From assembly GCA_964567535.1 (NCBI GenBank), contig CAZMNC010000125.1, positions 32,353 to 96,352 on the forward strand: a DNA stretch of 64,000 bases, written 5' to 3'. Position 1 is the stretch's first letter; each line of letters opens with the position of its first letter. The notes under the pieces were generated by a model, which worked only from the letters and a program-made list of their open reading frames with translations, was not told the origin of the DNA and did no database searches. Positions 6,641 to 47,950 of this stretch are shown one piece after another. The stretch comes from an uncultured Desulfobacterales bacterium. Its GTDB lineage: Bacteria > Desulfobacterota > DSM-4660 > Desulfatiglandales > JALVZP01. The position numbers were made by a program, and so were the translations under genes.

Positions 6641-6669
6641 AGGATAATTTGCATTATATTTAGAGGTAT

Positions 6670-6700: not shown

Positions 6701-6707
6701 ATTTGGA

Positions 6708-29430: not shown

Positions 29431-30019
29431 TTACCTTGAACCTCCTGAGATCTTCTTGTTTGTTAATATTAATCAGAAATTCTAATCCTGGATCATATCT
29501 TTCTATTTCATTCTTCTCTACATATCTTATAGAAAGACTTTCAAAAAAACTTCTTATATTTAATTTGTTTTTTGAGATAGACTTTTTTATAAATGGAAGG
29601 CAATTTTTGGTATATATTGCATGAAGAGGTTCTATATTGCCACCAATTCGTGGTACAACAATATCAAACCCATTTTTTATTGATATCATATATCTTATGA
29701 GAGATGGATTCAAAAATGGCATATCACAGGCAACAAAAAAGCCAGCCTTACCTGTCATTTTAATAATTCCTGTAAGGATTCCAGCAATTGGGCCTATTCC
29801 CTTGATAATATCCTCATATATCTTTAAACCTAAACAAGAATATTTATCTGGATTATTGGCTATAATAATGACTTCATTAAAGACCTTCTGCATTACATTA
29901 ATAACTCGTTCTATTAGAGGTAATCCATTAAAAAGTTCAAATGCTTTATCTCTACCATATCTCAGGCTTTTTCCACCTGCTAATATAACCCCGGTCATAT
30001 TATTTAAGGAAGGGTTCAT
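29423..30019 (-). CDS. mobA: Molybdenum cofactor guanylyltransferase
   Basis: 198 aa. N-terminal [17 protein letters not shown] nucleotide-binding loop and MobA-like size. Confidence 0.8.
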
Positions 30020-30966
30020 AGGATGGATCTAAAATATTCTATAGTTCTTTGTATTCCATCTTCTAAAGAAATTTTAGGTTGCCAATTTAACAATCCTTTT
30101 GCCAAAGAAATATCAGGTTGTCTTCTAACAGGATCATCTTGTGGAAGTGGAAAAAAGACTATCTTTGATCTACTACTCTTACATAACCTCAAAATTAACT
30201 CTGCTATTTCCAATATAGTCTTCTCATCAGGATTTCCCAAATTAATAGGACCTGTTATATCATCTGGACTGTTCATCATCTTCATTATGCCATCTATCAT
30301 ATCATCTACATAACAAAAAGACCTTGTTTGAGAGCCATCTCCAAAAACTGTTATATGTTGATTTGTTAAGGCCTGCACTATAAAATTACTTATTACCCTG
30401 CCATCATTTGGATGCATTCTTGGGCCATAGGTATTAAATATACGAATTACCTTTATCTTTACACCATTCTGTCTATGATAATCAAAGAAAAGAGTTTCAG
30501 CACATCTCTTTCCTTCATCATAACATGCCCTCAAACCAATAGGATTCACATTGCCCCAATAAGATTCATACTGTGGATGTCTTTCTGGATTACCATATAC
30601 CTCACTTGTAGATGCCTGCAATATTTTTGCTCTTACTCTCTTTGCCAGACCAAGCATATTTATAGAGCCCATTATATTTGTCTTGATAGTTTTTACTGGA
30701 TTATACTGATAATGAATAGGTGATGCTGGACAAGCGAGGTTGTATATTTCATCCACTTCTAAAAATATAGGATGAACTATATCATGACGTATTAGTTCAA
30801 AATTGGGTTTTTTCAAAAGATGTTGGATATTCCTTTTAGAACCAGAAAAAAAGTTATCTAAACAAATAACATCATAGCCCTTTTCTACAAGTCGATCACA
30901 AAGATGAGAACCTAAAAACCCCCCTCCCCCTGTAACCAGCACCCTTTTTGGCTGAAATATCTTCAT
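30016..30966 (-). CDS. UDP-glucuronate decarboxylase (UDP-xylose synthase-like SDR)
   Basis: 316 aa. GGGGFLGSH Rossmann motif, catalytic YDEGKRCAE, and the overall UXS pattern (STSEVYG). Confidence 0.85.
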
Positions 30967-31068: not shown

Positions 31069-31722
31069 TTATAATTTAATATGTTGCCAATCAGACATGT
31101 TTAATTTTTTTATAGGTCTTGCAGGAATCCCTACTGCCAATGAATTATCAGGAATATCCTTTGTTACTACTGCCCCTGCACCTATATAAGACATTTTTCC
31201 TATATTTATATTAGGAATAATAACTGCTCCTGTACCAATAAAACATCCATCACCTATACAAACTTTGCCAGATATATGAACTCCAGGGGATATAGTGGTA
31301 TACTTACCAATTACAACATCATGGCCTATTGTACAGGACAAATTTATGATAACAAAATCTTTTATACTGATTTGACTTGTAATTATGTTTCCTGCACAGA
31401 TTATAGAGCCTATTCCCACTTCAATCCACCTGGACTTTATCACACTGGGATGGATAATAGTATCATATTGAAAACCTTTTTTCTTAGTATATTCTATAAT
31501 CTTCTTTCTAATAGGGCTTCCTATAGCACATATAAGCTTAATATTATTAGGATCTAACTTTTCTAAAAGAGAAATGTCATGTATTGGTTTTCCATTCAAT
31601 AATTTGCCTTCTCTATTTGTATTTTCCTCCATAAAACCCAAAATTTCATCTTCTCTATTTAAGTCTATATAAATATTTAGGACTTCTCTTCCAAATCCCC
31701 CAGCTCCTATTATATAAATCAT
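31069..31722 (-). CDS. NeuD/PglD-like sugar N-acetyltransferase (left-handed beta-helix)
   Basis: 217 aa. N-terminal Rossmann-like IYIIGAGGFGREV and C-terminal hexapeptide repeats (IGxxxxIG). Confidence 0.8.
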   Translation of the reverse strand: MIYIIGAGGFGREVLNIYIDLNREDEILGFMEENTNREGKLLNGKPIHDISLLEKLDPNNIKLICAIGSPIRKKIIEYTKKKGFQYDTIIHPSVIKSRWIEVGIGSIICAGNIITSQISIKDFVIINLSCTIGHDVVIGKYTTISPGVHISGKVCIGDGCFIGTGAVIIPNINIGKMSYIGAGAVVTKDIPDNSLAVGIPARPIKKLNMSDWQHIKL

Positions 31723-31727
31723 AGTGC

Positions 31728-32909
31728 CTAACCTAAATTCAATAAAGGATATGATATAGATATATCATGGATATTCCTTTTGTTTAATAAATTTATTATT
31801 GTACCAGTAACTTTATCTATTTCTTTTATTTTTAAATCAGGGTAAAGTGGAAGGCATAGAATCCGAGAAGAGATATCAACAGCATTTTTTAAACCATATT
31901 TCTTTATTAAATCGCCTTTTTCTTTAAAATAATCAAATTCTACTGTTAATGGATAAAAATATTTACGAGTTTTTATGTTATTATTTAATAATTCTAAATA
32001 AACCTCATCTCTTACACTTTTACTCTCAAAGAGAATCGGCATATATGCATAATTATACTTTGATGCTATGATTTTTTGAAAACCTATATTTGGATATTCT
32101 GAAAGAGCCTTTTTATAATATTTATATAGCCTTTTTCTAAATGATATTTTTTCATCTATATTTTCAAGATTACATAAACCCATCGCGGCCTGAAATTCAT
32201 TCATTTTAGCATTTATTCCCGGAAGAATGACCCTTTCTTCAGATATAATACCATGGTTTCGCATTAATCTAATTTTATCTAACATGCTTTTATTATTAAC
32301 TATAAGCGCGCCTCCTTCAATAGTATTAAAGACTTTTGTGGCATGGAAACTTAATACTGATATATCTCCATACCTTAATATTGATCTGTTTTTATACTCC
32401 ACTCCAAAGGCATGAGCAGCATCATAGATCAATTTTAAGTTATGTGTGCAAGCAATTTTATAGAGTTCCTCTACATAACACGGATTACCATAAACATGAG
32501 TTGCAAGAATCGCACTTGTCCTATAGCTTAATTTCCTTTTTACATCATGAGGATCAATATTAAATGTCTCAGGATCAATATCAGCAAATACAGGTTTTAG
32601 TCCTAAAAGGACAGGAATGTTAGTAGTTGCAGCAAATGTAAAAGGGGTGGTAATAATTTCACCTTTCAGTTCAAAAACACTCAAAGCAATATAAAGCCCT
32701 AATGTTGCATTACTTACACAAACTAAATTTTCAACATTCAAATATTCTTCGAGCCTTTTTTCTAATAACTGAAGCAATTCACCATTATTTGTAATCCATC
32801 TACATCTCCATATCTTATCTAAATATTGAATATATCTTTTTAATGGAGGAAGATCTGATTTAGTAACAGTAATTGCATCTTTCATAAACATATAATTTAT
32901 CCATTTCAC
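31728..32909 (-). CDS. DegT/DnrJ/EryC1/StrS-family sugar aminotransferase
   Basis: About 385-393 aa. PLP-lysine region (SFHATK). The track start is a GTG at 32909, and the ATGs at 32891 and 32885 are alternatives. Confidence 0.88.
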   Translation of the reverse strand: MKWINYMFMKDAITVTKSDLPPLKRYIQYLDKIWRCRWITNNGELLQLLEKRLEEYLNVENLVCVSNATLGLYIALSVFELKGEIITTPFTFAATTNIPVLLGLKPVFADIDPETFNIDPHDVKRKLSYRTSAILATHVYGNPCYVEELYKIACTHNLKLIYDAAHAFGVEYKNRSILRYGDISVLSFHATKVFNTIEGGALIVNNKSMLDKIRLMRNHGIISEERVILPGINAKMNEFQAAMGLCNLENIDEKISFRKRLYKYYKKALSEYPNIGFQKIIASKYNYAYMPILFESKSVRDEVYLELLNNNIKTRKYFYPLTVEFDYFKEKGDLIKKYGLKNAVDISSRILCLPLYPDLKIKEIDKVTGTIINLLNKRNIHDISISYPLLNLG

Positions 32910-32915
32910 AAAGAC

Positions 32916-35900
32916 TTATAAAAAAGTATATTTATGTTCATAAAACATCCTTAAATTTTCTAAATATCTGTTGTAATTATAATAAGCCTTACACATAAAA
33001 TATTGTTGGTTTTGATATTTAGAAAACTTTGCTTCATTATCTAATTCCTTTAGATCATAACATATATTTTTAACTAATTCTTCATAACTATGATAAACAG
33101 TACGCAATTTTTTAAAATCAGCGGTAAAAAAATTAGGATTATATACAGCAAAACTAATACCACCACTAAAAATAGTCTCTACAAAATACCCATCTAAGCC
33201 CTCTCCAAAGGTCAACGACCATTTTGCTCGAGATATTAATTTTTTATAATCTTCATAATGAAGATTATTTATAATATGTATATCTAAATTTGGCAGTGCA
33301 GTTTGAATCAAATTTAGGATTTTCATCTTCATGAAGTGACTATCAGGAGAAACTATCATTATATCTTCTTTTTCTTTGTAATCTTTTTTATTATACCACT
33401 CAGGACTTACATAAGTAGAAAGTCTGTGTAATGGGATACCCAGTTTTTCTCTTACCTCTAAAGTAGAATATTGATCATGAGCCGTAGTACATGTTAAAAA
33501 TCCCATCTTTTTTAATTTCCTAAAAATTTCTTTATAATTTTGAGGCAATGCCTCTATATTTTGAAGCATTATATTAAAATGAATTTTCTTAATTTTTTTT
33601 AATTTAAAATAATAATTATTAAGAAATTCTATTGTGACTCTATCTATAACATGCAAAGGTATATGAATCATCAACTCTTTTAAATTAGAAAAATAAGAAA
33701 GAATCTGCGAAAATTTGTAAATATAATCTTTATTATGGAATTTAGTGTGTCTTATTAAATCAGGATCACCGGGAATGGTACAAATTATTGTTTCAGCATT
33801 ATGTATAGACTTTAATTTTTTTGTTTCCTTATAGATAGAATAAATAGACAAAATACCACCATTTACAATATCATAACCTGGGATAAGGAATACTATAAGT
33901 TTCTTAGTATCAGGGGGATAATTTTCTTTCAATATCTTATCTCTTTGTTCTTTCTGATATTCATTCTCTTCTAATTCCTTATAAATCTCGTATATTTCCT
34001 GAGCTTCTCTGGTAAAACCAAGACCAAGCATAATCTGGCCACAATTCCACATAATATCCAGATCATCAGGACATAATTTCATAGCCATTGATATACAGGA
34101 AAAAGCCTTTTCCCTGTCTTGTTTATGCCAATATATAGCTGCGAGATCATTATAGGCTTGTGCACATGATGGATCTGTCTTTATTGCTTGCTCAAAAAGG
34201 GAGATAGCCTTATCTATTTCTCCTTTTTCAAAAAGTTGCTCCCCTTTTTTACAAAAGAGCTTAGCTTTATCTTTGTGCTTAAAATCCTTAGCAAGATATC
34301 TTTTAAAACATAAACCTTGAGCTAAAGACAAAAATTTCAAAAAAGTCCATTTATCAGGATTGTTCACAAAATCTTTTGCTGAATTTTCAAGAACTATATC
34401 TGGCCAATCTTCCCATATTTTAGGATCCAATTTATATAGCTCTATCTTACCTTTCTTACCCAGAATAAAGTCTTTTATGCCTTCTACAAAGCCTTTTATA
34501 CACGCTGGACTTTTATTTAGCTGATCCCAATACGTTTTTTCTAAAATAGCAAAGCAATCAGAAATATTATTATATTGCACATTGCAATATAAAAAATTTC
34601 TTGGGGCATAATATGCGCTAATAGGGGTCTTAAGCCATTTACCAATAGATGCACCCCCTTTATGATAGACCACTGAACATGGATCATATAAAATAAACCA
34701 GCCATTGCTTTTTGCCCTTTTACAAAAATCGTTATCTTCAAAATAAAGGAAGTAATCTGTATTTAAAAATCCTATATCTTTAAAAACAGCACTTTTTATA
34801 AGAAGACTACACGCAGGAGCAAATTCCACAATTTTTAAAAAATCGTCATTATTATCCTCTTTGCCTACATCACTCGGGATATCCCCATCATACTGCACCT
34901 TTTTTTTATCCTCATAAAAATATATTTTGGAAGAAACAAGCCCTATTCTTTCATCTATGATTGATGACCGCACAAGCCTCGATAAGGCATTTTCATCTAC
35001 TACAGTGTCATTGTTTAATAGCCATACATAATCGGCTTTACATTTTAAAGCATATTTTATACCTATATTATTGGCACCTGAAAAGCCAAGATTTTCCTCA
35101 TTTTCTATAATAATTAATTCTTTTGTAAAATCCTTATCAGGAAAGACAAAATCTTTATTGCAAAAGATAATATGTTTACCCTTATCTTTTGCCCATTTTA
35201 TAATTTTGTCTGTAGAATCATCTTGTGAACCATTTTCTACTATAATTATTTGGAAATTATTATATTTAATATTGTAAATAGACTCCAAACAATGTAGAGT
35301 ATCATGTGCATTTTTATAATTTACTAAAATTATTGAAACCTTTTTATCTATTTCTTTGAACATATTTTCATACTTTTTAGATGGCTTAAACCAGGCTATT
35401 CCCCATAGTTCTTCAGGAACAGGAACATTTCCAAAACCATAGTGTTCTATAAGCTTGTATGCCAGTCTATCTGTGCTTTCTTGAACCAACCTATTAACTT
35501 CCTGATAAGGACTGGTTTGAAATGAAGCTTGTCCCTTATGATAAATAAAGACGTCAGTTGCCACTAACAATTTATATCCATATAATTGAAGTCTCCAGGA
35601 AAATTCCAAATCTTCGTTTCCCAAAAATAGACTCTCATCCAGAAGCCCTAATTTTTTAAAAACGTCCTTCTTTATGACAAGACAGAAGCCAGTTAGCAGT
35701 TTAGTTTCCACATCTTTATCTTTATAGTACTTATATATTTCTTCTGATATTTGGATAATACTAAAATCACCATTTGATATGGGAAGATCTTTTAAATATA
35801 AACTTAAACTCTGTTTACCTGAAGCGAAATTAGATATAGGACCAACAGCACCTATATCCTTGTTTTTAAAATGTGCTATTAATCTTTTATCCCAATCAGG

Positions 35901-37625
35901 AGTAACAGAAGTATCAGGATTAAGCAAAATTATATATTGTCCTTTTGCTAATTTAATTCCTTGATTACATGCCCTTGCAAAACCAAGATTTCCTTTATTA
36001 AAGATTGGTTTAATAACCAAAGGAAATCGTTTATGAAATGAGGTCAATATATCCTGTGTATCATCCTTAGAGTCATTATCAATGACCAATACTTCATAAG
36101 GTAGCTTAGTAAAGGACAATATACTATTCAAACAATTAGATATATGCTCAGATGAATTATAAGTCACTATAATTATACTGATACTATTTACCCTAATATC
36201 AGGCTTAATTTTTCCCTGCCATTTTTGATTTAATCTTTTCACATTTTCATATTCAAACTTATGTCTATTATTTGTTTGCCCTTCAAAATGATATAAGACA
36301 CTATTTGGACAATATATGACTTTATATCCCAGCTCTCTCACTTTAAAACACAGATCCACATCTTCATATCCATTGATAAATTTTTCATCAAATCTGCCAA
36401 CTTGATCGAAAACTCTTTTTGGAATTAACATACAGGCACCTGTAACTGCCTTATATTCTTTTACCTGGTTTACTTCTAAAATATTAGCTGATTTTTTATA
36501 ATATATATGATGAGGAGAAATAGGCTCAGGAAAATCACATATCACAACACCAGCATGTTGTATAGTCCCATCAGGAAAAAGCAATTTACTGCCTACGATC
36601 CCAACTTTTTTATCATTTTTTATAATATTTAGCATTTCTTCCAACCAGTTGGCCAAGGGTATAATATCATTATTTAAAAACAATAAATATTCACCCTTAG
36701 CGAGCTGTGCACCTTGGTTACATGCCTTTGCAAAACCAAAATTTTCTTTATTATTTATAATCTTTAAGTTCGGGTGATCTTTAACAAAATCTTCCAAAAA
36801 CTCTTTTGTCCCATCGGTAGAGCCATTATTTACTATGATAAGCTCAAACAAATTACTTGGTGTTACTTGATATAATGTGGAAATACAATTCTTGGTATAT
36901 TCCATTTTATTAAATACTGGAATAATGATAGACACCAAAGTCTTTGTTTTAATATGGGACATCCAGACCTTACCCTTAGGACGCACAAAATTTAATGCCT
37001 TTAAAAATTGTTCCTCAGAAGGTATTATTCCCAAAAACCATGTCAATTCTCTTAAAATAGGTTCAGGGTTTGATATAAACTTCTCATACCATATATGAAA
37101 ATTTTTCAATTTAGGATATTTTTTAATAAAATTTAATATTCGAGTTTCATAAATTTGAATCAATTTCAAACTGGAATCTATATCTTTACCATCTCTCTGT
37201 TTTAAAGATGCTGATATATTTTTAGGATTTCTGTGACATATAATAAAATAGGGGTTTTTCAGATATGGTAAAAAAAGCTCTATTGTCAAAACAGTTCTTG
37301 GATCTTTCCATCCCCATATACCAGAAGCCTCATTTTCAATAAGTCTTTTTATATACAAAGAAAATTTTTCTTTTTGAGCCAAAATAGCATCTTCTGAAGG
37401 TGGATTATCCCAACTACCACCAGCAGCCTTTAAGATTTCATCATTTAATTTTACAAACTCTAAATTTTCAAAGTGTCCCAAAGGATTAGACCAATGAGAG
37501 TCCATAAGATTTTTACCCATGTCAATACCTAAGATGTTTAAAATACCAGATATCATTGAAGTGCCAGATCTATGCATTCCCAAAACTATCACTGATTTTT
37601 TAATCTTATGAAAATCAGAAGACAT
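32916..37625 (-). CDS. Giant multidomain glycan-synthesis protein: N-terminal sulfotransferase + three GT2 glycosyltransferase modules + TPR repeats + unassigned C-terminal domain
   Basis: 1569 aa.
- Residues from about 10 to 215 carry GMHRSGTS and WKDPR (PAPS-binding loops of bacterial sulfotransferases).
- Three GT2 starts are present: SIIIPVFNK...NNGSTDGT, IIIVTYNS...DNDSKDDT, SIILVNYKN...ENGSQDDS.
- A TPR block lies around residues 1100-1210.
- The last 340 aa or so are unassigned. Confidence 0.85.
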   Translation of the reverse strand: MSSDFHKIKKSVIVLGMHRSGTSMISGILNILGIDMGKNLMDSHWSNPLGHFENLEFVKLNDEILKAAGGSWDNPPSEDAILAQKEKFSLYIKRLIENEASGIWGWKDPRTVLTIELFLPYLKNPYFIICHRNPKNISASLKQRDGKDIDSSLKLIQIYETRILNFIKKYPKLKNFHIWYEKFISNPEPILRELTWFLGIIPSEEQFLKALNFVRPKGKVWMSHIKTKTLVSIIIPVFNKMEYTKNCISTLYQVTPSNLFELIIVNNGSTDGTKEFLEDFVKDHPNLKIINNKENFGFAKACNQGAQLAKGEYLLFLNNDIIPLANWLEEMLNIIKNDKKVGIVGSKLLFPDGTIQHAGVVICDFPEPISPHHIYYKKSANILEVNQVKEYKAVTGACMLIPKRVFDQVGRFDEKFINGYEDVDLCFKVRELGYKVIYCPNSVLYHFEGQTNNRHKFEYENVKRLNQKWQGKIKPDIRVNSISIIIVTYNSSEHISNCLNSILSFTKLPYEVLVIDNDSKDDTQDILTSFHKRFPLVIKPIFNKGNLGFARACNQGIKLAKGQYIILLNPDTSVTPDWDKRLIAHFKNKDIGAVGPISNFASGKQSLSLYLKDLPISNGDFSIIQISEEIYKYYKDKDVETKLLTGFCLVIKKDVFKKLGLLDESLFLGNEDLEFSWRLQLYGYKLLVATDVFIYHKGQASFQTSPYQEVNRLVQESTDRLAYKLIEHYGFGNVPVPEELWGIAWFKPSKKYENMFKEIDKKVSIILVNYKNAHDTLHCLESIYNIKYNNFQIIIVENGSQDDSTDKIIKWAKDKGKHIIFCNKDFVFPDKDFTKELIIIENEENLGFSGANNIGIKYALKCKADYVWLLNNDTVVDENALSRLVRSSIIDERIGLVSSKIYFYEDKKKVQYDGDIPSDVGKEDNNDDFLKIVEFAPACSLLIKSAVFKDIGFLNTDYFLYFEDNDFCKRAKSNGWFILYDPCSVVYHKGGASIGKWLKTPISAYYAPRNFLYCNVQYNNISDCFAILEKTYWDQLNKSPACIKGFVEGIKDFILGKKGKIELYKLDPKIWEDWPDIVLENSAKDFVNNPDKWTFLKFLSLAQGLCFKRYLAKDFKHKDKAKLFCKKGEQLFEKGEIDKAISLFEQAIKTDPSCAQAYNDLAAIYWHKQDREKAFSCISMAMKLCPDDLDIMWNCGQIMLGLGFTREAQEIYEIYKELEENEYQKEQRDKILKENYPPDTKKLIVFLIPGYDIVNGGILSIYSIYKETKKLKSIHNAETIICTIPGDPDLIRHTKFHNKDYIYKFSQILSYFSNLKELMIHIPLHVIDRVTIEFLNNYYFKLKKIKKIHFNIMLQNIEALPQNYKEIFRKLKKMGFLTCTTAHDQYSTLEVREKLGIPLHRLSTYVSPEWYNKKDYKEKEDIMIVSPDSHFMKMKILNLIQTALPNLDIHIINNLHYEDYKKLISRAKWSLTFGEGLDGYFVETIFSGGISFAVYNPNFFTADFKKLRTVYHSYEELVKNICYDLKELDNEAKFSKYQNQQYFMCKAYYNYNRYLENLRMFYEHKYTFL

Positions 37626-37793: not shown

Positions 37794-38465
37794 TCAGGTT
37801 CCAATATAGCCTGGCAGATTTTTAATAATTGAATAAATTTTTTGGCTATTTTCACTCAAAAATTTTATTATCTCATTAGATTTCTTTGTAAGATATTCTC
37901 TGTTCTGTTCTTTTATTTCTTTACCCTTTATAAGCATCCTATTTTCATAGAGAATGCATATAATCATATCCTCGGCATCAGGTATAACATTGAATTTATT
38001 TTTCAGATAATTAAACCAATAACCAAACTCTTGGGGATGTTCCAAGTGCTCTAAGGGTATAATATATTCCAGAGAAAGTGCTCGTGCAAAAGCTGGTATA
38101 ATACAAGAACCATTAAGAAAATCCAAGGCATGAGCTAACTCATGAATCAAAGAACTCTCATTAGCATTAGGCTTTAGGGCTATATATATGTTTTTTGGAT
38201 CACTAATACGTGTTTTTAAAGCATTTATCATCAAGGCATCTGGATATTTATTCTGTTTTTTGCCATTCATATTAAGAGCCATATAGGCATTCATATCCAC
38301 AAATTTTATTCCCATATCTTTTCCTGTAATCTCTTTTAGATTTAGCTCATTCTTTATTTGTTGAGATCTGCCATAATCAACCTCTGAAAGGCTTGTAATC
38401 ATAAGACTTTTATCAAAAGAAATCTCTTTTAAACTATCTGCGACAAGTTTTTTTTCGTCTATCAT
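37794..38465 (-). CDS. Hypothetical protein with HExxH motif (putative zinc metallopeptidase-like)
   Basis: 223 aa containing LIHELAHALDF. Its start lies 1 nt after the stop of the upstream Zn-ribbon gene. It is the last gene of the sat-apr-qmo-hdr transcription unit. Confidence 0.5.
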   Translation of the reverse strand: MIDEKKLVADSLKEISFDKSLMITSLSEVDYGRSQQIKNELNLKEITGKDMGIKFVDMNAYMALNMNGKKQNKYPDALMINALKTRISDPKNIYIALKPNANESSLIHELAHALDFLNGSCIIPAFARALSLEYIIPLEHLEHPQEFGYWFNYLKNKFNVIPDAEDMIICILYENRMLIKGKEIKEQNREYLTKKSNEIIKFLSENSQKIYSIIKNLPGYIGT

Positions 38466-38752: not shown

Positions 38753-39628
38753 TTATCTAATATGTTTCATAACGTATTCTGGTGGAATAAAATTCATATG
38801 GAGAACTGCCTCTTTTTTTAAATCCATACCAAATGCCACTGCTATAAGCTGAGTTAGATATACTACCGGTATTTCAATATGCGTACCATATATTTTATTT
38901 ATTCTCGTTTGATACATTTCAAGGTTCATTGCACACATAGGACATATCGTAGAAATTATCTTTGCCCCATGTGATATAGCATCCTCCAATATATCTTTTA
39001 CAAGACCTAAACACAACTCCATTTCTGGAAAGAATATTCCAGAACCACAACATTGCATCTTTTTTGGAAATTTGACCGGCTCTGCTCCTAAAGCCTCAAT
39101 TATTTTATCCTGAACCTTTGGCCTTTCTACACTATCATACTCCCCATAAGGTCTTACAGACTGACAACCTACATAACCAGCCACTTTTAATCCATTCAGA
39201 GGTTTTATCACAGCATCTCTTATCCTTTTTATTCCCACGTCATTAAATAATATATCCTGAATATGCCTTACCCTCAATGTACCATTATATTCAAGTCCTG
39301 CCTTTGCTAATATATTATTTATTAAGTTTCTAATGGATTCATTCTCTTGAATCTCATGATTAGCCCTATTCATTTGGACATAACATGAACTACAAGGAGC
39401 AACAATATCATAACTGGCTGTTTTTTCAGCAAGAGCTAAATTTCTTGCATTAAGCACTTTAATAGTAAAATCTTTTGCACCCACATAAGAAACACTTGCT
39501 CCACAACAATTCCAATCCTCTATTTCCTCAAATTCTATACCCAGTTTTTTACACACTGGTTTAAGTGACTTTAAATAATTAGCTCCACTTGCTTCGAGAC
39601 TACATCCCCAATATAAAAAATATTTCAT
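38753..39628 (-). CDS. hdrB: Heterodisulfide reductase subunit B-like protein (two CCG domains)
   Basis: 291 aa with two CCG motifs (NCCGASVSY and QCCGSGIFF). Overlaps hdrC by 4 nt. Confidence 0.85.
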   Translation of the reverse strand: MKYFLYWGCSLEASGANYLKSLKPVCKKLGIEFEEIEDWNCCGASVSYVGAKDFTIKVLNARNLALAEKTASYDIVAPCSSCYVQMNRANHEIQENESIRNLINNILAKAGLEYNGTLRVRHIQDILFNDVGIKRIRDAVIKPLNGLKVAGYVGCQSVRPYGEYDSVERPKVQDKIIEALGAEPVKFPKKMQCCGSGIFFPEMELCLGLVKDILEDAISHGAKIISTICPMCAMNLEMYQTRINKIYGTHIEIPVVYLTQLIAVAFGMDLKKEAVLHMNFIPPEYVMKHIR

Positions 39629-40212
39629 ATAGATTCTCCTACATTTTCAGCTTCTTCTAACATTACTTTAAACTCTTTTAGACTCTTTAACTTTCCTTCA
39701 GGTAATAACTTCATTCTTCCATGAAGCAACATAATCAAACCCATATCTGCCATATCCAACGTATTTTTAAGTCCTTGAATAAAACCATTAGAAAATAGAT
39801 ATTCCCTTAATAGGGCTTTTTCATCTATTCTACCCCGTTTATATATTTGTTTCCAAAAAACTTTTCCAAAAGTAGATGTATTTTTACTGGATTCCATGCT
39901 TAGTTTTGTGGCATAATAAGCGAGACTGTGCATGATATCCATAACAGGGATACCACGCGGACATCTAACTTTACATGAATAGCAGGATGTGCACAGGAAA
40001 ATAGACTTGCTTTTTAAGATTGTTGCTTTTTTACCCGCCCTGAGGAGGGCGAATATTTTACGAGGAGGGTAATCCATGTGGTGTTTAAGGGGGCAGGATC
40101 CTGCACACATCCCGCACTGAATACACTTTTTTATTTCTTCAACAAATTCCACATCTTTAAATATATCTATAGCCACCGTGCTATTGTATTGTAGCATAGC
40201 GTCAATTACCAT
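39625..40212 (-). CDS. hdrC: Heterodisulfide reductase subunit C-like 4Fe-4S dicluster protein (soluble, no TM helices)
   Basis: 195 aa with CIQCGMCAGSCP and CTSCYSCKVRCP ferredoxin motifs. No hydrophobic helices are visible. Confidence 0.8.
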   Translation of the reverse strand: MVIDAMLQYNSTVAIDIFKDVEFVEEIKKCIQCGMCAGSCPLKHHMDYPPRKIFALLRAGKKATILKSKSIFLCTSCYSCKVRCPRGIPVMDIMHSLAYYATKLSMESSKNTSTFGKVFWKQIYKRGRIDEKALLREYLFSNGFIQGLKNTLDMADMGLIMLLHGRMKLLPEGKLKSLKEFKVMLEEAENVGESI

Positions 40213-42437
40213 CCTTTATATGGATTAGGTCCTATCTCTTCTATAGACTTCATAAAATCATCAATAATTTCTGGAATCCTCCAGTAATCTGCAATACCAA
40301 CTTCCTCAAACTTTACCCTTTCTGATTCAAGGGCAAGCCTCTCAAGAGTTTCTGAAATTTTGCTTAGTCTTGTATTTGCAAGCTCACTCCCTTTTACAAA
40401 ATGACATTGATAATCATCGCCATATCTACATCCAAGGAGAAGTATCCCATCTATCCCACGAGATAATGCATCAGCTATCCATATAAGATTCAGAGATCCC
40501 AGGCATCGTAAAGGTATAAAACGCACATATGGACTCCATTTAAATCTTTTTATGCCTGCCATATCAATAGCAGCATAAGCATCATTTTCACATACAAAAA
40601 CGATAACTCTTGGCTTTTCTTCATCTTCCTCAGGAACTTGTATCGCATTTATCATATTGCCTATTATTTGGACTGAATAGTTCTTAAAGGAAATTACCCT
40701 TTCTGGACATGCACCCATACATGTGCCACAACGCCTACATCTTGTAGGATTAAACAGAGGATTAGCCTTCTCATCTTCATTTATAGCGCCAAAAGGGCAT
40801 TCCTCTGTACATCTTTTACATTGGGTGCATCTTTGTAAATTTACCTCAGGATAACTTAAATCCCCTGACCTTGGATGAACTGCCATACCTTTCTCTGTCA
40901 TTTCTATACACTGAATAGCTTTCATTGCTGCCCCTGCTGCATCATCCATCACCCTTGCTGTCTCCATAGGCTTTCTAATACATCCTGCAGCATATATACC
41001 TGTTCTTCTTGTCTCATATGGAAAACAAATAAAATGAGAATCAGGGAATCCATATCTTAAGGTTGGAAGTTCTGGTCCTTGCCTATATTCCAAATTAAGC
41101 GTACGATTTGCATAAAAACCAGAATCGGGGGTAACCTCTATCATACCTTCATCATCAGCACCTTCTGTGCCTTCAGGGGCTTTTATTTTGGGCGTAACCT
41201 CTGGTTTTGAAGCAGGCACCATTCCAGTAGCTAAAACCAACATATCTAAATCTTCTATCCTTATCTTTTCTCCCAGAAATTCATCTTCAGCCTCAATTAT
41301 CAATTTTTCTCCTTGTTCTTCCACATTTGTAATAGTACCTCTTAAAAAGATATGACCATTTAACTGAGTCTTTTTATAAAATTCTTCTGCTTGACCTACT
41401 GTTCGCATATCCTTAAACAGGATATAACAAACAGCTTCTGGATCTTGCTCTTTTATATAAGCAGCTTGCTTAAGGGAGACTAAACAACATACAGAGGAAC
41501 AATATGGCAAATGTTCAGGGTCCCTTTGGCCTGCACATTGGATAAAAAGCACATTCTTAGGTACTTTACCATCTGATGGTCTTTTTACTCCTCCATTAGA
41601 TGCCATTTCTTCAAGTTCCCAATTGGTTATCACATTTTTAAATTTTCCATATCCAAACTTTTCAAGCTTATTTGCATCATAAGGCACCCATCCTGTTGCC
41701 TGAATTATTGCGCCCACTTTTTCACTTACAATACTATCATTAGTTTTAATACTAACTGAAAAAAGCCCAGGAGCTCCACTAATTTTTTCCACAGTTGCAG
41801 AGGTATATACTTTTATTTTAGAATTGTTATTAATCTCATCTATAAGTTCATTTAGTCCTGTATCATATAGATCCTCGTAAGGAGGAGCTATCTTTTTCTT
41901 CATCTTATTTAAAAATCCCCCTAATTTATCCTCTTTTTCCACTAAGATAGCTTGATATCCAGCCTTAGACACTTCTATTGCCGCTGTCATCCCTGCAAGC
42001 CCACCACCTACAATTAATATATCCTTTGAATACTCTTCTTCTGCTTTATAGGGTTCAGGGATATCCATATCTTTTACTTTTGCACAGCCAATTCTAATAT
42101 AATCCTCTGCAAGCATTTGAGTGTCCTCTTCCTTAGGAGGTTGACTCCATGCTACTTGCTCCCTGAGGTTTACTCTTTCTACTATTTTATCAGCTCCAAA
42201 ATTAAAAACATCTTGATTTACTCTTGGAGAACAAGCACATATTACAATGGTATTAATCTCCTCATTAGTTATATCTTGATTTATCAACTCAATCCCTTCG
42301 TGCCCACATAAAAAGGGATGCTCTTTACATATTGATATATCAAACTCTTCACCCACTAATTCTTTAATGGGCTCCACATCAATAGCATCTCCAATACCGC
42401 ATCCTGTGCAGATATAAACTCCAACCCTCTTTTCCAT
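40206..42437 (-). CDS. qmoB: Quinone-interacting membrane-bound oxidoreductase complex subunit B (HdrA-like flavoprotein with MvhD-like C-terminus)
   Basis: 743 aa. FAD-binding GGGLAGMTAA, ferredoxin motifs CTQCKRCTEECP / CRRCGTCMGACP, and a C-terminal MvhD-like domain. It sits directly after qmoA and aprBA. Confidence 0.9.
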   Translation of the reverse strand: MEKRVGVYICTGCGIGDAIDVEPIKELVGEEFDISICKEHPFLCGHEGIELINQDITNEEINTIVICACSPRVNQDVFNFGADKIVERVNLREQVAWSQPPKEEDTQMLAEDYIRIGCAKVKDMDIPEPYKAEEEYSKDILIVGGGLAGMTAAIEVSKAGYQAILVEKEDKLGGFLNKMKKKIAPPYEDLYDTGLNELIDEINNNSKIKVYTSATVEKISGAPGLFSVSIKTNDSIVSEKVGAIIQATGWVPYDANKLEKFGYGKFKNVITNWELEEMASNGGVKRPSDGKVPKNVLFIQCAGQRDPEHLPYCSSVCCLVSLKQAAYIKEQDPEAVCYILFKDMRTVGQAEEFYKKTQLNGHIFLRGTITNVEEQGEKLIIEAEDEFLGEKIRIEDLDMLVLATGMVPASKPEVTPKIKAPEGTEGADDEGMIEVTPDSGFYANRTLNLEYRQGPELPTLRYGFPDSHFICFPYETRRTGIYAAGCIRKPMETARVMDDAAGAAMKAIQCIEMTEKGMAVHPRSGDLSYPEVNLQRCTQCKRCTEECPFGAINEDEKANPLFNPTRCRRCGTCMGACPERVISFKNYSVQIIGNMINAIQVPEEDEEKPRVIVFVCENDAYAAIDMAGIKRFKWSPYVRFIPLRCLGSLNLIWIADALSRGIDGILLLGCRYGDDYQCHFVKGSELANTRLSKISETLERLALESERVKFEEVGIADYWRIPEIIDDFMKSIEEIGPNPYKGW

Positions 42438-42443
42438 TGCGCA

Positions 42444-43754
42444 TTACCTCCTGGAGATTGATTGAATAGCCTTAATGGCTGCTGCTGTGGCATCTTGAAC
42501 AGAAGTTGCCACATCTGTTGGTTTTCTTACACATCCGGCACCATATATACCACTTAATTTATTATCTCTTAATATGAAGCCAAATTTATCCTTAGGTACA
42601 TCAGGTGCCTCAATATTTATAGTGTTGGGAACCATACCTGTAGCAAGGACTACCATATCAAATATCAATTTGACCTGATTACCTGTATGTGTATCTTCTC
42701 CTTCTACAATAAGGTCCCCAGTATCTTCTTTTTCAGTAATAAATGCTATTTTACTTCTGATAAATTTTATCTTTTCATCCTCTTTAACTTTATTATAAAA
42801 ATCTTCCAATCTGTCTAATGCCCTAATATCAATGTAAAAAATAGTTACTTCTGAGTCTGGATGTTTTTCTCGTACATAAAGGGCCTGTTTCATAGATGCT
42901 AAACAACAAACCCCGGAACAATAAGGAAGATGATTCTCATCTCGTGAACCAGCACATTGAATAAATGCTATATTTTTTACCTCTTTATTGTCAGATGGCC
43001 TTAATATTCTTCCTCCCGTGGGTCCATTTGGAGATGCCAGTCTTTCCATCATTACATTAGTAACCACATTTTTATATTCGCCAAATCCATAATATTCTAT
43101 ATTTCTGGCATCATATGGTTCCCATCCTGCTGCCCATATAATAGCCCCTACCTTTAAATCAAACATCTTTTCTTTCATATCCAAATCTATTGCACCGTAT
43201 TCACAAACAGACTTACATTTTTCAGCTTCCTCTGTCCCTACAATAGAAGGATCCATCACATATCTCATGGGAAAAGCAAATTCATGAGGTAAATATATTG
43301 CCTTTATTTTGCTAAGCCCAAAATCAAAAGGATTATCTATCTCGGTCTCACATACATCTACACATTTTCCACAGCAAGTACATTTTTCATTTATATATCG
43401 TGGGGAAATTTTAACAGTCACATCATAGTTACCTTCTTCGCCTGTTATCTTTATTGGCTCAGCCATTGTAAAAAAACGAACTCTTGGATTCTGTTTCAAT
43501 CTCCTAAAATTTATCTCAAGCCCACAATTAGGGGGACAAAGCTTAGGAAAATAATGATAAAATTGGGTAACTTTTCCTCCTAAATAGGGTCTTTTCTCTA
43601 AAAGAATTACATTATAACCTGCCTCAGCAGCTTCTAATGCGGCAGTTACACCGCTCATCCCTCCACCTATTACCAATATATTCTGATTTATAGCCTCCAC
43701 GTCACCTTCCCTCCGCACGAATTTTTCATAAAGAATGGAAAATGCCCCAGGCAT
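42444..43754 (-). CDS. qmoA: Qmo complex subunit A (HdrA-like flavoprotein)
   Basis: 436 aa. FAD-binding VIGGGMSGVTAALEAAEAG and HdrA-like Cys motifs, in the canonical position downstream of aprA. Confidence 0.9.
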   Translation of the reverse strand: MPGAFSILYEKFVRREGDVEAINQNILVIGGGMSGVTAALEAAEAGYNVILLEKRPYLGGKVTQFYHYFPKLCPPNCGLEINFRRLKQNPRVRFFTMAEPIKITGEEGNYDVTVKISPRYINEKCTCCGKCVDVCETEIDNPFDFGLSKIKAIYLPHEFAFPMRYVMDPSIVGTEEAEKCKSVCEYGAIDLDMKEKMFDLKVGAIIWAAGWEPYDARNIEYYGFGEYKNVVTNVMMERLASPNGPTGGRILRPSDNKEVKNIAFIQCAGSRDENHLPYCSGVCCLASMKQALYVREKHPDSEVTIFYIDIRALDRLEDFYNKVKEDEKIKFIRSKIAFITEKEDTGDLIVEGEDTHTGNQVKLIFDMVVLATGMVPNTINIEAPDVPKDKFGFILRDNKLSGIYGAGCVRKPTDVATSVQDATAAAIKAIQSISRR

Positions 43755-43785
43755 AAAACCTGGGGCATCGGGCTATATCAACCAA

Positions 43786-45669: not shown

Positions 45670-45682
45670 TTTTTACCCCTCC

Positions 45683-46126
45683 TTATGAAGATTTATAAGT
45701 TGGTACAGCATCTATTCCCAAGGATGCAGGCTCTGTTGCCAATGCTTCGCTATTAAGATCATCATGTGTTGGAAAACCACCTATTGGATCTGCAGTGCCT
45801 TCATCTGTGGTCCTGATAGGAAATTTAAATCTCTTTATTGTCCCATCTCTAAATTTTACTGTCCACATTATATCCCTTGATCCACGAAGTGGAACCACAC
45901 TTGCACCTAAAGGAATAAAATCTGCATAACCACGCACATCAATTGCCTGTTGAGGGCAAATCTTTACACAACACTGACATTCCCAGCACATAGAAGGATC
46001 ACGATTATAAGCCTTCATCTTTTCTGTATCTAATACCATAAGATCATTGGGACAGATGTACATACAAGCAGTTTTATCCTGGCCTTTGCAACCATCACAT
46101 TTTTCAGCAATCACATAACTTGGCAT
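45683..46126 (-). CDS. aprB: Adenylylsulfate (APS) reductase beta subunit
   Basis: 147 aa. MPSYVIAEKCDGCKG... start and two 4Fe-4S motifs (CMYICPNDLM, CWECQCCVKICP), which are canonical for AprB. Confidence 0.95.
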   Translation of the reverse strand: MPSYVIAEKCDGCKGQDKTACMYICPNDLMVLDTEKMKAYNRDPSMCWECQCCVKICPQQAIDVRGYADFIPLGASVVPLRGSRDIMWTVKFRDGTIKRFKFPIRTTDEGTADPIGGFPTHDDLNSEALATEPASLGIDAVPTYKSS

Positions 46127-46132
46127 CTTTTT

Positions 46133-46212: not shown

Positions 46213-46215
46213 TAG

Positions 46216-46572: not shown

Positions 46573-46588
46573 TTTAAACCTCCTATTT

Positions 46589-47950
46589 TTATAAATCTTC
46601 AAGATCCATTTCGAGATCTCTTTCTTTGTCTCTTACATATTTTTCATTACAGAAAGGATATCCAAAATGCTTCCACCATTTTACTACAACTTTATATACT
46701 TCGGGTCTCATAATAATAGCAGGAGGCTGAACCCCTTCTGCCACCATGCCTCTTAATAAACTTCCACTTATTCCTTCCCTTTGATGAGCACAAGTTTCGC
46801 TATATGCCATCTCTTTACAGACAGGACAATATGAAAATTCTCTTATATTCTGTGGTCTTATCTGCACTCCATATGGCACATCTGTTGGAGGCTGATCAAA
46901 ACCAAAACTTGGGATGCCTTTTGTCCACAAAATCTGAGTTGCCCACATATCATAATATTCTCCAACTGCCGCATGATCTCGGCCAAACATATGATGAGTG
47001 CATCCCATATTCTGGCGTATTATAGCATGCAACAAAGATTCAAGAGGATTACCATATCTCATATCCCATAGACAAATACTGACAAGACGCCGTTCTGGTT
47101 TAATGTACCCTGCTGTACTTACTGCCTCTTGAGCTTCTACTATAGTTTCATCAGGATAATCACCCCGCCGCTTTACACCTATTATTGCATTCACAAGTAT
47201 GCCATGACATGGTTCTATATCCCCTGTATATGCAGCATTCTTCATAAGAAATTCATGTCCTACATGAGGGACATTTCTTGTCTGATGAGCAATAGCTGTC
47301 CTCCAATTTAGTTCATCAAACTTCTCCCTACATTTTCTGGGCGGAAACCAAAATCTATCAAATGGAGGACGGAATTTAGGCTCATTTATTATTGTGTATT
47401 TACCTGCAAGAACAATTGGCTGAAGGCTTCTATAAATGACCCAGCCAGGATGTTTTTTATCAAATGGATGCTTAACTACCTCTGGATTATCCTCAGGGGT
47501 ACCAAAAGTCTTATGAGCAAGCTCTTCTATATTATCTATTTCCCATACTTCTTCTATATCAAGAATGGCAAATGGTTTGCCTTTTAAAGTAAGAACTAAA
47601 CGATCTCCCCCAGTAACCCCCAACTTGTTATAGTCTTCTTTACTTATGTCAAACACTAAAGGAAACGGAAAAATCCAATCATTTAAAAGACGGCGCTCTT
47701 TAAGAATCCTTTCTACCTCAGCCTGCTTCATAGAACCTTCTACTGGACTAAAAAAGCCATAACATATAGAAATAATCTCCCTATAAACATTCCTTACAGG
47801 AACTCCTGTCTCAAAATGAAGAGTAGGCTTAATTTCATATGTAGGACAGCCTTTTATCATTTTCTTTGCCACTTCCTTGTCTTTAATAACATTCTCGACC
47901 AACCTCCCTCCATGAGGCAATGGCCTTTGAATCAGTAAACTTGACATCAT
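46589..47950 (-). CDS. sat: Sulfate adenylyltransferase (ATP sulfurylase)
   Basis: 453 aa. QTRNVPHVGHEF (QxRNxxHxxH motif) and a PUA-like N-terminal domain. AAGGAGG RBS. Confidence 0.95.
   Translation of the reverse strand: MMSSLLIQRPLPHGGRLVENVIKDKEVAKKMIKGCPTYEIKPTLHFETGVPVRNVYREIISICYGFFSPVEGSMKQAEVERILKERRLLNDWIFPFPLVFDISKEDYNKLGVTGGDRLVLTLKGKPFAILDIEEVWEIDNIEELAHKTFGTPEDNPEVVKHPFDKKHPGWVIYRSLQPIVLAGKYTIINEPKFRPPFDRFWFPPRKCREKFDELNWRTAIAHQTRNVPHVGHEFLMKNAAYTGDIEPCHGILVNAIIGVKRRGDYPDETIVEAQEAVSTAGYIKPERRLVSICLWDMRYGNPLESLLHAIIRQNMGCTHHMFGRDHAAVGEYYDMWATQILWTKGIPSFGFDQPPTDVPYGVQIRPQNIREFSYCPVCKEMAYSETCAHQREGISGSLLRGMVAEGVQPPAIIMRPEVYKVVVKWWKHFGYPFCNEKYVRDKERDLEMDLEDL

Follow-up and report, generated by a model that had tools for sequence, protein, structure and literature searches.

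We find that a single gene in the window, by which we mean the whole 64-kb stretch of DNA analysed here, encodes a real multidomain enzyme in which one chain combines five catalytic-type domains, namely a PAPS-type sulfotransferase, three GT-A/GT2 glycosyltransferases and one GT-B domain. It is a variant of a common enzyme type rather than a new kind of system. That this synthase is a glycan-building multi-glycosyltransferase is highly probable, and its product is probably sulfated in vivo. Our overall reading, which we give about an even chance, is that the multi-enzyme is soluble and cytoplasmic and that it both builds a glycan, short or repeating, and sulfates it, with flagellin as the likeliest acceptor.

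Domain structure of the synthase

The gene is a single open reading frame of even base composition, without interruption or internal stop, and carries a Shine-Dalgarno sequence (GGAGG) about 7 nt 5′ of its ATG. The identical protein is present in NCBI/ENA on a 105,784-bp contig. No transmembrane-grade hydrophobic segment was found in it (the maximum KD19 value, 1.75, falls at the first beta-strand of the GT-B model). A reading made earlier from the sequence only had proposed the order sulfotransferase, three GT2 modules, TPR repeats and a C-terminal part, and scanning the protein in segments with Pfam gave this same order: Sulfotransfer_3, Glycos_transf_2 and TPR models all matched, and the 334-aa tail drew nothing in Pfam.

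32916..37625, minus strand: whole gene, 1569-aa soluble multidomain glycan synthase (sulfotransferase, three GT2, TPR, GT-B), from the ORF
36981..37598, minus strand: PAPS-type sulfotransferase domain (aa ~10–215; PF13469)
36216..36935, minus strand: GT2 module 1 (aa ~231–470; PF00535, E 3.6e-31)
35481..36182, minus strand: GT2 module 2 (aa ~482–715; PF00535, E 3.7e-31)
34626..35339, minus strand: GT2 module 3 (aa ~763–1000; PF00535, E 1.4e-18)
33936..34274, minus strand: TPR block of about three repeats (aa ~1118–1230; TPR_11 2.6e-12, TPR_2 5.7e-12, TPR_1 1.4e-11)
32919..33920, minus strand: predicted glycosyltransferase domain of GT-B fold at the C-terminus, belonging to an unannotated family (aa 1236–1569; AF2 and Foldseek)

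The Glycos_transf_2 matches span aa ~232–452, ~483–715 and ~764–1000, and module 2 is 33% identical to module 1, while module 3 is 28–30% identical to the other two. The three GT2 cores are as first described, and each keeps its acidic motifs, but the "DxD" start ascribed to each is not borne out: the positions read NND (318–320), NPD (569–571) and NND (871–873), an NxD variant, each accompanied by an ED pair (421–422, 671–672 and 963–964) and by a further motif (NNGSTDGT 266–273, DNDSKDDT 516–523 and ENGSQDDS 797–804, respectively). The TPR match (aa ~1121–1215) directly precedes the GT-B domain, and many relatives terminate just after the TPR block.

The C-terminal ~340 residues, which the sequence-only reading had left unassigned, are predicted to adopt a GT-B glycosyltransferase fold. 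Residues 1225–1569 have no match in Pfam or NCBIfam, and the domain (aa 1236–1569) has none among PDB sequences, but the AlphaFold (AF2) model is confident (pLDDT 97.3, pTM 0.93), and GT4-type retaining GT-B enzymes rank first in Foldseek (E down to 9e-9, TM ~0.6), with WsaF among the matches. Judging from this model, the tail is a putative fourth glycosyltransferase closest to GT4-type retaining enzymes. Its conserved features are GG 1256–57, K1419 and an E-x7-E pair (E1475 and E1483). The family comprises at least 512 clusters at 50% identity and 918 clusters at 90% identity, all "hypothetical", and its members are mostly stand-alone proteins of ~370 aa from archaea and bacteria; one fusion partner is the rhamnan synthesis protein RgpF. 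Of 49 positions that are highly conserved in the family, the synthase departs at one, residue 1324, where HIPE has become HIPL, and therefore the activity or specificity of the domain may be altered. The Glu is retained in the orthologues P0002 and L001.

Relatives, gene surroundings and the likely acceptor

The architecture is less unusual than the sequence-only reading had implied: giant GT2/TPR relatives gave 5430 matches, so that the synthase is one of thousands of such modular proteins. Among the best 120, this sulfotransferase is present in about 13, and about a quarter have methyltransferase domains instead.

Immediately downstream of the synthase lie three sugar genes with operon-like spacing (gaps of 6, 5 and 102 bp), the first of which begins 6 bp past the synthase stop:

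31728..32909, minus strand: DegT/DnrJ/EryC1 sugar aminotransferase (PF01041, E 5.8e-91)
31069..31722, minus strand: NeuD/PglB/VioB-family sugar N-acetyltransferase (TIGR03570, 216 bits against a cutoff of 160.8; PglD_N and hexapeptide repeats)
30016..30966, minus strand: NAD-dependent sugar epimerase/4,6-dehydratase (PF01370 and PF16363, E ~1e-52)

In NCBIfam the aminotransferase comes nearest to models for 4-keto-6-deoxy sugar aminotransferases (DesI, PseC, LegC), without reaching the cutoff of any, and the epimerase is 68% identical to the synthase-adjacent epimerase in loci L081/L082 (Ca. Desulfofervidus) and L087. The trio fits the supply of an NDP-4-acetamido-4,6-dideoxyhexose donor.

The acceptor is suggested by the gene neighbourhoods of relatives. 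We compared eight loci of synthase relatives with 80 control loci chosen only for the C-terminal domain. Genes for the flagellar filament, hook junction or cap lie within 10 kb in five of the eight, against two of the 80 controls (Fisher p = 2.8e-5):

L081: fliD, fliS, fliT, Maf-like
L084: flagellin, flaG, fliD
L086: flagellin
L093: flgK, flgL, fliW and csrA directly upstream
L094: three flagellins, fliS, fliD

A NeuB-type nonulosonic-acid pathway is encoded at a sixth locus, L087, and loci L083 and L085 contain no flagellar genes; nor does the 64-kb window. Because of this enrichment, a sulfated flagellin O-glycan is the leading reading, and flagellin, which the sequence-only reading had not considered, is the foremost candidate acceptor, although we hold this tentatively, at slightly less than even odds. 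Flagellin would be O-glycosylated in the cytoplasm ahead of export, a route that could do without a lipid carrier, a flippase and an ABC exporter, all of which are absent from the window. Each of the four glycosyltransferase sites would add one linkage type, the TPR block may dock onto a protein partner, and the sulfotransferase would use PAPS to sulfate a sugar hydroxyl, whether to decorate the repeat unit or to cap the chain end.

Alternatively, and as the main rival, the synthase could be a WsaE/WbdA-type polymerase and modifier of a surface polysaccharide (an O-antigen, a capsule or an S-layer glycan) that is linked to undecaprenyl and depends on an ABC transporter. The glycosyltransferase domains would then build the repeat on a lipid carrier at the inner membrane face, the chain would receive a sulfate cap or decoration where WsaE/WbdD give a methyl cap, and the genes for Wzm/Wzt and the initiating transferase would lie elsewhere. 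We consider this less likely. In its favor, the chain looks like a WsaE–WsaF set fused into one, and WsaF is among the Foldseek matches of the C-terminal domain; methyltransferase domains are frequent among the best homologues; and RgpF, a fusion partner, acts in rhamnan synthesis. Stand-alone homologues of the C-terminal domain have Wzt no more than 10 kb away in 27 of 80 loci, and Wzm in 22, a pattern that points to lipid-linked polysaccharides in the case of this family, and one locus from Acidobacteriota (L031) unites the domain, the same sulfotransferase type, a Sat–APS kinase fusion, Wzm/Wzt and GT2/GT4 genes. On the other hand, phmmer finds no homologue of Wzm/Wzt in the window, and Pfam shows no family of flippases, polymerases or initiating transferases there (among ORFs of at least 120 aa, 55 of 58 were scanned, and the remaining three are overlapping alternative-frame ORFs), TPR blocks are not a known feature of WsaE or WbdA, and the closest full-length relatives of the synthase cluster with flagellar genes rather than exporters.

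Sulfotransferase domain and the supply of PAPS

The Sulfotransfer_3 match (PF13469, aa 12–200) scores 41.9 bits against a cutoff of 27, and the domain sits where many relatives have SAM methyltransferase domains. The motifs quoted from the sequence at the outset, GMHRSGTS (aa 16–23, the 5′-PSB loop) and WKDPR (aa 106–110), are real, and the PAPS-binding residues hold up on proper alignment; the 3′-PB motif is R132...S140. The fold is supported by profile matches to CurM ST (4gbm, 3e-9), Stf9 (2z6v) and TPSTs, and by an AF2 model (pLDDT 90) whose best 49 Foldseek matches are all PAPS sulfotransferases. E53 and K107, invariant across the subfamily, are kept; E53 may be the catalytic base, and in the alignment it does not coincide with CurM's catalytic Glu.

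Since the motifs are of the PAPS type, the predicted sulfation still requires an APS kinase. The window was said to hold none, which we confirm by Pfam for the same 55 ORFs and by tblastn and phmmer over all 64 kb with the CysC of a relative as query, and in Sat (46589..47950) Pfam shows PUA_2 and ATP-sulfurylase domains and no others. The idea of an assembly line for a sulfated glycoconjugate nevertheless fits the relatives: in Ca. Desulfofervidus auxilii (L081/L082), whose sulfotransferase domain is 62% identical to ours, an APS-kinase gene (cysC, PF01583) overlaps the start of the homologous synthase gene, and L031 has its Sat–APS kinase fusion. In our organism the APS kinase that supplies PAPS would have to be encoded beyond the window, and it would be fed by Sat-made APS. 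The proximity of the synthase to the sat-apr-qmo-hdr run looks coincidental, and a functional link to the neighbouring sat is not borne out: between the synthase and that run lies an unrelated 223-aa ORF, with a gap of 287 bp before it and one of 168 bp after it, and sat or apr adjoins the synthase in none of the eight relatives' loci.

It is improbable, but conceivable, that the genome has no APS kinase and that only the glycosyltransferases work, the sulfotransferase being idle or re-purposed and the glycan unsulfated, or the domain serving in structure or binding only. The window's 64 kb without APS kinase, set against the translationally coupled cysC of the Desulfofervidus relative, would agree with this, as would the fact that dissimilatory sulfate reduction needs Sat and Apr only, both present here. 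However, cysC could be anywhere in the rest of the genome, and all subfamily-invariant residues are intact, both PAPS-binding motifs included, which argues for purifying selection on catalysis.

We reject as extremely improbable that the reading frame is a fusion artefact, mis-assembly or indel error joining separate genes: a Desulfofervidaceae MAG (L085) does have the sulfotransferase and the 3×GT2–TPR part called as two overlapping genes, but that split is the likelier error since it coincides with an A9 homopolymer and the GT frame continues without a stop 5′ of the annotated ATG (KASII-MPVYNK against VSIII-PVFNK in the synthase), our frame shows neither stop nor shift in composition, and each domain junction is bridged by proteins of independent assemblies (sulfotransferase–GT2 in P0016, P0053, P0011, P0012 and P0015; GT2–GT2–GT2–TPR in P0003 and P0005; GT2#3–TPR–C-domain in P0002 and L001, the last as a single 582-aa HSP at 59% identity).

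Comparison with known systems

The soluble protein WsaE of the Geobacillus stearothermophilus S-layer glycan joins an N-terminal methyltransferase to two GT2 rhamnosyltransferase domains and is partnered by the GT-B enzyme WsaF; the target of its modifying domain is the glycan as it grows (PMC2943079). By domain layout the synthase is alike, a large soluble enzyme in which a small-group transferase at the N-terminus precedes tandem GT2 domains, together with a GT-B (GT4-like) transferase. It differs in having a sulfotransferase for the SAM methyltransferase, three GT2 domains and TPRs instead of two GT2 domains and none, and a fused GT-B domain where WsaF is a separate protein; wsaE furthermore adjoins wzm/wzt, which the window lacks.

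In the characterised flagellin glycosyltransferase FlmG of Caulobacter the TPR domain binds flagellins and the GT-B domain performs catalysis (PMC7591256). The synthase has the same order of TPR block and GT-B catalytic domain, a parallel that also speaks for flagellin as acceptor, and is likewise predicted to be soluble and cytoplasmic. FlmG, however, is a 596-aa protein with one catalytic domain that transfers pseudaminic acid, whereas here the TPR–GT-B unit ends a chain of five enzymes and no flagellar gene is nearby.

The C-terminal domain shares the two-Rossmann GT-B fold with PimA, BshA, MshA, tll1591 and the Actinobacillus minor glucosyltransferase 8xsh, and like GT4-type enzymes it has an N-terminal Gly-Gly loop, a conserved Lys and an E-x7-E in its C-terminal half. 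Unlike them, it matches no Pfam GT4 model, is only 8–13% identical, and found neither PDB sequences nor the window's own GT4 protein in profile searches; it behaves as a separate, unannotated family.

Sulfated polysaccharide loci that combine sulfotransferases and glycosyltransferases are already known in bacteria (PMC8205485, PMC11641403). Stf9, Stf1, Stf0, NodH, CurM ST and the synechan Xss sulfotransferases share fold and PAPS-binding motifs with our domain, and Stf9, Stf1 and CurM ST are among its best structural or profile matches, although its identity to any solved structure is only 13–19%. Those enzymes stand alone or work in a PKS line, whereas the sulfotransferase described here is fused to four glycosyltransferase domains.

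The synthase and its genomic setting

We find that positions 32916-37625 hold a single uninterrupted open reading frame on the minus strand, which encodes 1569 aa and carries a GGAGG ribosome-binding site about 7 nt 5′ of its ATG. Pfam, applied segment by segment, recovers the domains below, which bears out the sequence-only reading of one polypeptide that joins a sulfotransferase, three GT2 modules and TPR repeats.

Pfam domains of the 1569-aa synthase, with scores against the family cutoffs
aa 12-200: Sulfotransfer_3 (PF13469), 41.9 bits against 27
aa ~232-452: Glycos_transf_2 (PF00535), module 1, E 3.6e-31, 108.8 bits against 23.3
aa ~483-715: Glycos_transf_2 (PF00535), module 2, E 3.7e-31, 108.8 bits against 23.3
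aa ~764-1000: Glycos_transf_2 (PF00535), module 3, E 1.4e-18, 67.8 bits against 23.3
aa ~1121-1215: TPR, about three repeats; TPR_11 46.7 against 26.8 (E 2.6e-12), TPR_2 45.2 against 27, TPR_1 44.1 against 27.8

Sulfotransfer_1 also matches (24 against a cutoff of 22). While PF00535 upholds the three GT2 cores, the literal DxD that each was said to bear is not present: the sites read NND, NPD and NND, so that the second Asp is retained and Asn replaces the first. In all three modules the NxD site has an Asp-rich loop upstream and an ED pair downstream. As the modules are only 28–33% identical to each other, we regard them as old paralogous modules and not as recent repeats. No segment of the protein reaches transmembrane-type hydrophobicity, the sole peak being the first β-strand of the C-terminal domain, and the synthase is thus predicted to be soluble.

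The gene lies downstream of the core genes of dissimilatory sulfate reduction, in low-GC DNA, and the window holds a second, small glycan patch.

Features of the window
38753-47950 (-): sulfate-reduction block upstream of the synthase gene, comprising sat, DUF6955, aprB, aprA, qmoA, qmoB, HdrC-like and HdrB-like genes
39625-40212 (-): HdrC-like protein, soluble, after qmoB
38753-39628 (-): HdrB-like CCG-domain protein, soluble, after the HdrC-like gene
37794-38465 (-): 223-aa ORF with HELAH (HExxH, zinc-protease-like), between the qmo/hdr genes and the synthase gene
32916-37625 (-): synthase
11108-14686: glycan patch of DUF4915, Glyco_trans_1_2 (CgeB-like), GT4 and methyltransferase genes

The DUF6955 gene, between sat and aprB, is small, and the HdrC-like and HdrB-like genes stand where other sulfate reducers would have the membrane protein QmoC. 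From this block to the synthase gene there is a 287-bp gap, the 223-aa ORF (which matches nothing in Pfam or NCBIfam) and a 168-bp gap. Downstream, after gaps of 6, 5 and 102 bp, follow genes for a DegT-family aminotransferase, an N-acetyltransferase of the NeuD/PglB/VioB family (above the NCBIfam cutoff) and an NAD-dependent epimerase/4,6-dehydratase, the classic set for making an NDP-4-acetamido-4,6-dideoxyhexose, and after these mobA and a CNNM/CBS gene. Around the synthase gene 65 promoter-like sites were found against 63 expected, and the operon borders gave no clear terminator, in DNA that is AT-rich. Pfam scans of the window revealed no flippase, polymerase or initiating-transferase family.

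Two further multidomain proteins were observed in the window. In a single 580-aa ORF at 15773-17515 (+), LytB/IspH (PF02401, aa 3-278) precedes a UbiA-family prenyltransferase (PF01040, aa 332-551), so that the enzyme of the final isoprenoid-precursor step is, unusually, fused to a prenyltransferase of the membrane, and an 885-aa protein at 6708-9365 (+) combines a DHH/DHHA1 phosphoesterase, two CBS domains and a poly(A) polymerase/CCA-adding head domain. When clustered at 90%, the proteins of the window remain singletons. No ArgRS elsewhere is more than 75% identical to that of the window, and its best named matches, at about 60–63%, come from Deltaproteobacteria/Thermodesulfobacteriota MAGs, which points, coarsely, to an uncultured Thermodesulfobacteriota-like bacterium.

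With the full-length synthase as query, 5430 proteins were retrieved at E ≤ 1e-10, all of them giant GT2/TPR proteins of modular build with, variously, GT4, methyltransferase, radical-SAM, deacetylase or sulfotransferase modules. Among the best 120 of the 5430, a sulfotransferase of the window type is present in 13–14, mostly at the N-terminus, and SAM methyltransferase domains take its place in roughly a quarter; in this very large family the two are interchangeable modules. A scan of metagenomes with the whole protein turned up no more than four GT2 loci, weak and unrelated. Within the limits set by short contigs, the exact architecture of the window protein recurs in the homologue P0002 and in a Desulfobacterales MAG (L001), where one HSP spans the third GT2 module, the TPRs and the C-terminal domain at 59% identity over 582 aa. 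The only relative that is split, from a Desulfofervidaceae MAG (L085), has the sulfotransferase (3137-3871) and the three GT2 modules with TPR (3858-6932) called as overlapping genes. Since an A9 homopolymer lies at the break and the frame of the GT protein is open 5′ of the called ATG, the simplest reading is a frameshift, either a sequencing error or real, and the split is probably not ancestral. With every domain junction present in independent assemblies and this one exception accounted for, we consider it very unlikely from these sequences that the synthase gene is an artefact of assembly.

The sulfotransferase domain and the supply of PAPS

Both motifs quoted for the N-terminus were found, GMHRSGTS at aa 16-23 and WKDPR at aa 106-110. 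When the domain was aligned with eight homologous domains from the first homologue search, G33, G50, E53, W72, K107, P109, R132 and S140 proved invariant in the subfamily, and the profile of this alignment matches the CurM sulfotransferase (4gbm, E 3e-9), Stf9 of M. avium (2z6v, 8.6e-9) and tyrosylprotein sulfotransferases. The 5′-phosphosulfate-binding loop, GMHRSGTS, aligns with SPRSGST of CurM, GMPRTGTT of Stf9 and GMPRSGTT of TPST, while the invariant R132 and S140 (HRNPKNISAS) align with VRHPYSVIES of CurM as the Arg...Ser motif for the 3′-phosphate. The PAPS-binding residues thus survive proper alignment, and as the 3′-phosphate motif is retained, PAPS is a likelier donor than APS. The AlphaFold model of the domain (pLDDT 90.3) has the sulfotransferase fold: its top 49 Foldseek matches in the PDB are all PAPS sulfotransferases, and PAP or PAPS is bound in many of these structures. 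K107 corresponds to the Lys of 'DKSP' in CurM, but the Glu region of CurM does not align with E53, the putative catalytic base.

As had been noticed before, no APS kinase is encoded in the 64 kb. It is the relatives that suggest how PAPS is provided. In Ca. Desulfofervidus auxilii (L081/L082; GCA_011052795.1 and a Logan contig), whose homologue has a sulfotransferase domain 62% identical to that of the window, a 209-aa APS-kinase gene (PF01583, cysC) lies directly upstream and overlaps the homologue's start codon. In a Pyrinomonadaceae MAG (L031, 9911-19854), a protein of the same family as the C-terminal domain is encoded with a 568-aa Sat-APS kinase fusion, Wzt, Wzm, a GT4/GT2 protein and a 415-aa sulfotransferase of the window's subfamily, a compact candidate locus for a sulfated polysaccharide. 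The cysC overlap and the linkage in L031 are good comparative evidence that sulfotransferases of this type use PAPS for glycan sulfation, including in a sulfate-reducing relative. The Sat of the window has only PUA_2 and ATP-sulfurylase domains, and the PAPS would come from an APS kinase encoded elsewhere, drawing on Sat-made APS. Such sulfation would make biosynthesis a second consumer of the APS pool, which normally supplies respiration, and in the synthase an uncultured sulfate reducer has a concrete candidate enzyme for sulfating carbohydrate.

A functional link between the synthase gene and the sat-apr-qmo genes is not supported, because relatives do not share the arrangement: in their eight loci neither sat nor apr adjoins the synthase, and its closeness to sat in the window looks incidental.

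The C-terminal GT-B-fold domain

The last part of the synthase had been described as a tail without recognisable motifs. This holds for Pfam and NCBIfam, neither of which has a match in aa 1225-1569, but structure prediction yields a glycosyltransferase fold of the GT-B type. The model of the domain (aa 1236-1569; pLDDT 97.3, pTM 0.93) matches retaining GT4-type GT-B enzymes in the PDB with Foldseek probability 1.00, TM ~0.5–0.65 and 8–13% identity, among them an Actinobacillus minor glucosyltransferase (8xsh, E 9e-9), 7fga, tll1591, LmbT, PimA (2gej), BshA, MshA, SenB and WsaF. Sequence profiles see none of this: Pfam Glycos_transf_1, Glyco_trans_1_4 and Glyco_transf_4 give no match at E ≤ 0.1, the profile of the domain matches no PDB sequence, and hhalign against the GT4 protein of the same window returns a probability of 0.9%. 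As the fold alone is informative, we file the domain as GT-B fold, family unassigned; judged by its model, it is a GT4-like domain of a family beyond current profile libraries.

This family is large. An exhaustive HMMER search over 1.84 billion cluster representatives gave 512 relatives at E ≤ 1e-3, 312 of them at E ≤ 1e-30, most being stand-alone proteins of about 360–400 aa that match end to end, and a word-indexed search gave 918 clusters at 90% identity. The 120 matches listed are 51–64% identical to the domain; none has a precomputed Pfam domain, any name given is 'hypothetical protein', and the few with a named organism are archaeal (Methanosarcina, Methanobacterium, Bathyarchaeia, Thermoplasmata). 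The 334-aa tail gives a first view of this GT-B family, hitherto unannotated and made up of hundreds of clusters, many of them archaeal, which can now be annotated.

An alignment of 111 sequences shows an invariant G-G loop, conserved N116, S191-x-D193 and G-E-G-x-D-x-Y, and, eight residues apart in E-x7-E spacing, the invariant E1475 and the 97% conserved E1483. Of the 49 most conserved columns, the window domain conforms to the family in 48, the exception being residue 1324 (codon 33654-33656), where HIPL has Leu for the roughly 90%-conserved Glu of 'HIPE', which the orthologues P0002 and L001 retain. The Leu may alter the activity or the acceptor specificity of the predicted GT-B domain.

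Elsewhere the domain is fused to glycan enzymes, namely GT2 in five homologues (P0136, P0170, P0213, P0222, P0262), RgpF and GT2 in P0225, and a sulfotransferase of the window type in P0122 and P0153. A general partnership with such sulfotransferases was rejected, as only 4 of 80 loci chosen solely for the C-terminal domain have one within 10 kb. As a separate observation, a Deltaproteobacteria MAG (L009, 27-11017) encodes a 664-aa protein in which the sulfotransferase is fused directly to the domain, with neither GT2 nor TPR between; it adjoins genes for a GT2-GT4 protein and Hdr/Qmo-like FeS-flavoproteins, a second case of such glycan machinery beside redox genes.

The acceptor, and comparison with known systems

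Five enzyme-type domains and a TPR block are contained in one chain, with nucleotide, PAPS and acidic motifs conserved. Each GT site would form one linkage, the sulfotransferase would place sulfate on a sugar hydroxyl, as a cap or a decoration, and the TPR block would dock an acceptor protein. For the identity of this acceptor, the loci of eight full-length relatives were examined. Flagellar filament or hook-associated genes lie within 10 kb of the synthase in five of the eight loci, the relatives of this giant GT2/TPR family lying mainly in flagellar clusters.

Flagellar genes within 10 kb of full-length synthase relatives
L081/L082: fliD, fliS, fliT and a Maf-like gene
L084: flagellin, flaG, fliD
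L086: flagellin
L093: flgF/G, A, H, I, N, K, L, then fliW and csrA directly upstream
L094: che genes, three flagellins, fliS, fliD

As a control, 2 of the 80 loci chosen only for the C-terminal domain are flagellar (Fisher p = 2.8e-5). At a further locus (L087) the synthase is near a NeuB/CMP-transferase pathway for nonulosonic acid, a typical flagellin sugar; L083 and L085 have neither this pathway nor flagellar genes. Glyco_trans_1_2 genes weakly similar (24–38% identity) to that of the window's glycan patch were also seen in L081, L083 and L084, of which L081 and L084 are flagellar.

We rank flagellin first as the candidate acceptor, a tentative choice to which we give somewhat less than even chances. 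The predicted solubility, the lack of lipid-carrier or export genes nearby and the TPR block directly before the GT-B domain all fit cytoplasmic O-glycosylation of flagellin. Against flagellin, the synthase gene of the window is itself not among flagellar genes, none of which, flagellin and FliD included, is present in the 64 kb; going by its relatives, it is plausible that the protein works like an enzyme of a flagellin glycosylation island.

Ranked second, and rather unlikely in our view, is a soluble polymerase-modifier resembling WsaE or WbdA that would act on lipid-linked polysaccharide. WsaE is such a protein, with a methyltransferase that caps the chain (PMC2943079), whose part the sulfotransferase would here play. 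The frequent position of the C-domain family beside Wzm/Wzt (22–27 of the 80 loci) speaks against flagellin and fits this reading, but the synthase gene is not beside wzm/wzt, homologues of which are missing from the 64-kb window.

Returning to flagellin, we speculate that in sulfate-reducing Thermodesulfobacteriota it carries a PAPS-derived sulfated O-glycan made by giant TPR multi-glycosyltransferases, and that an APS kinase reserved for it, like the one of Ca. Desulfofervidus, draws on the respiratory APS pool; this proposal as a whole we hold to be doubtful. If true, this flagellin glycan would to our knowledge be the first in Bacteria to bear a sulfate ester, and the large GT-B family, so far unannotated and found also in Bathyarchaeia, methanogens and Archaeoglobus, would gain its first assigned function. 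In the open-access papers searched there is no report of sulfotransferases linked to flagellin glycans, of a sulfotransferase fused into such a synthase or tied to flagellar clusters, or of the GT-B family.

Current understanding is not overturned by these results, which refine the annotation and indicate a possibly new chemistry of flagellin or surface glycans. Multidomain glycan synthases, flagellin glycosylation islands, sulfated bacterial polysaccharides and PAPS sulfotransferases are already known, and the synthase with its sulfotransferase is not a categorically new system. It resembles FlmG of Caulobacter, whose TPR domain binds flagellins (PMC7591256), in having the TPR block directly ahead of a GT-B domain, and it differs from WsaE in that a sulfotransferase stands in the place of the methyltransferase.
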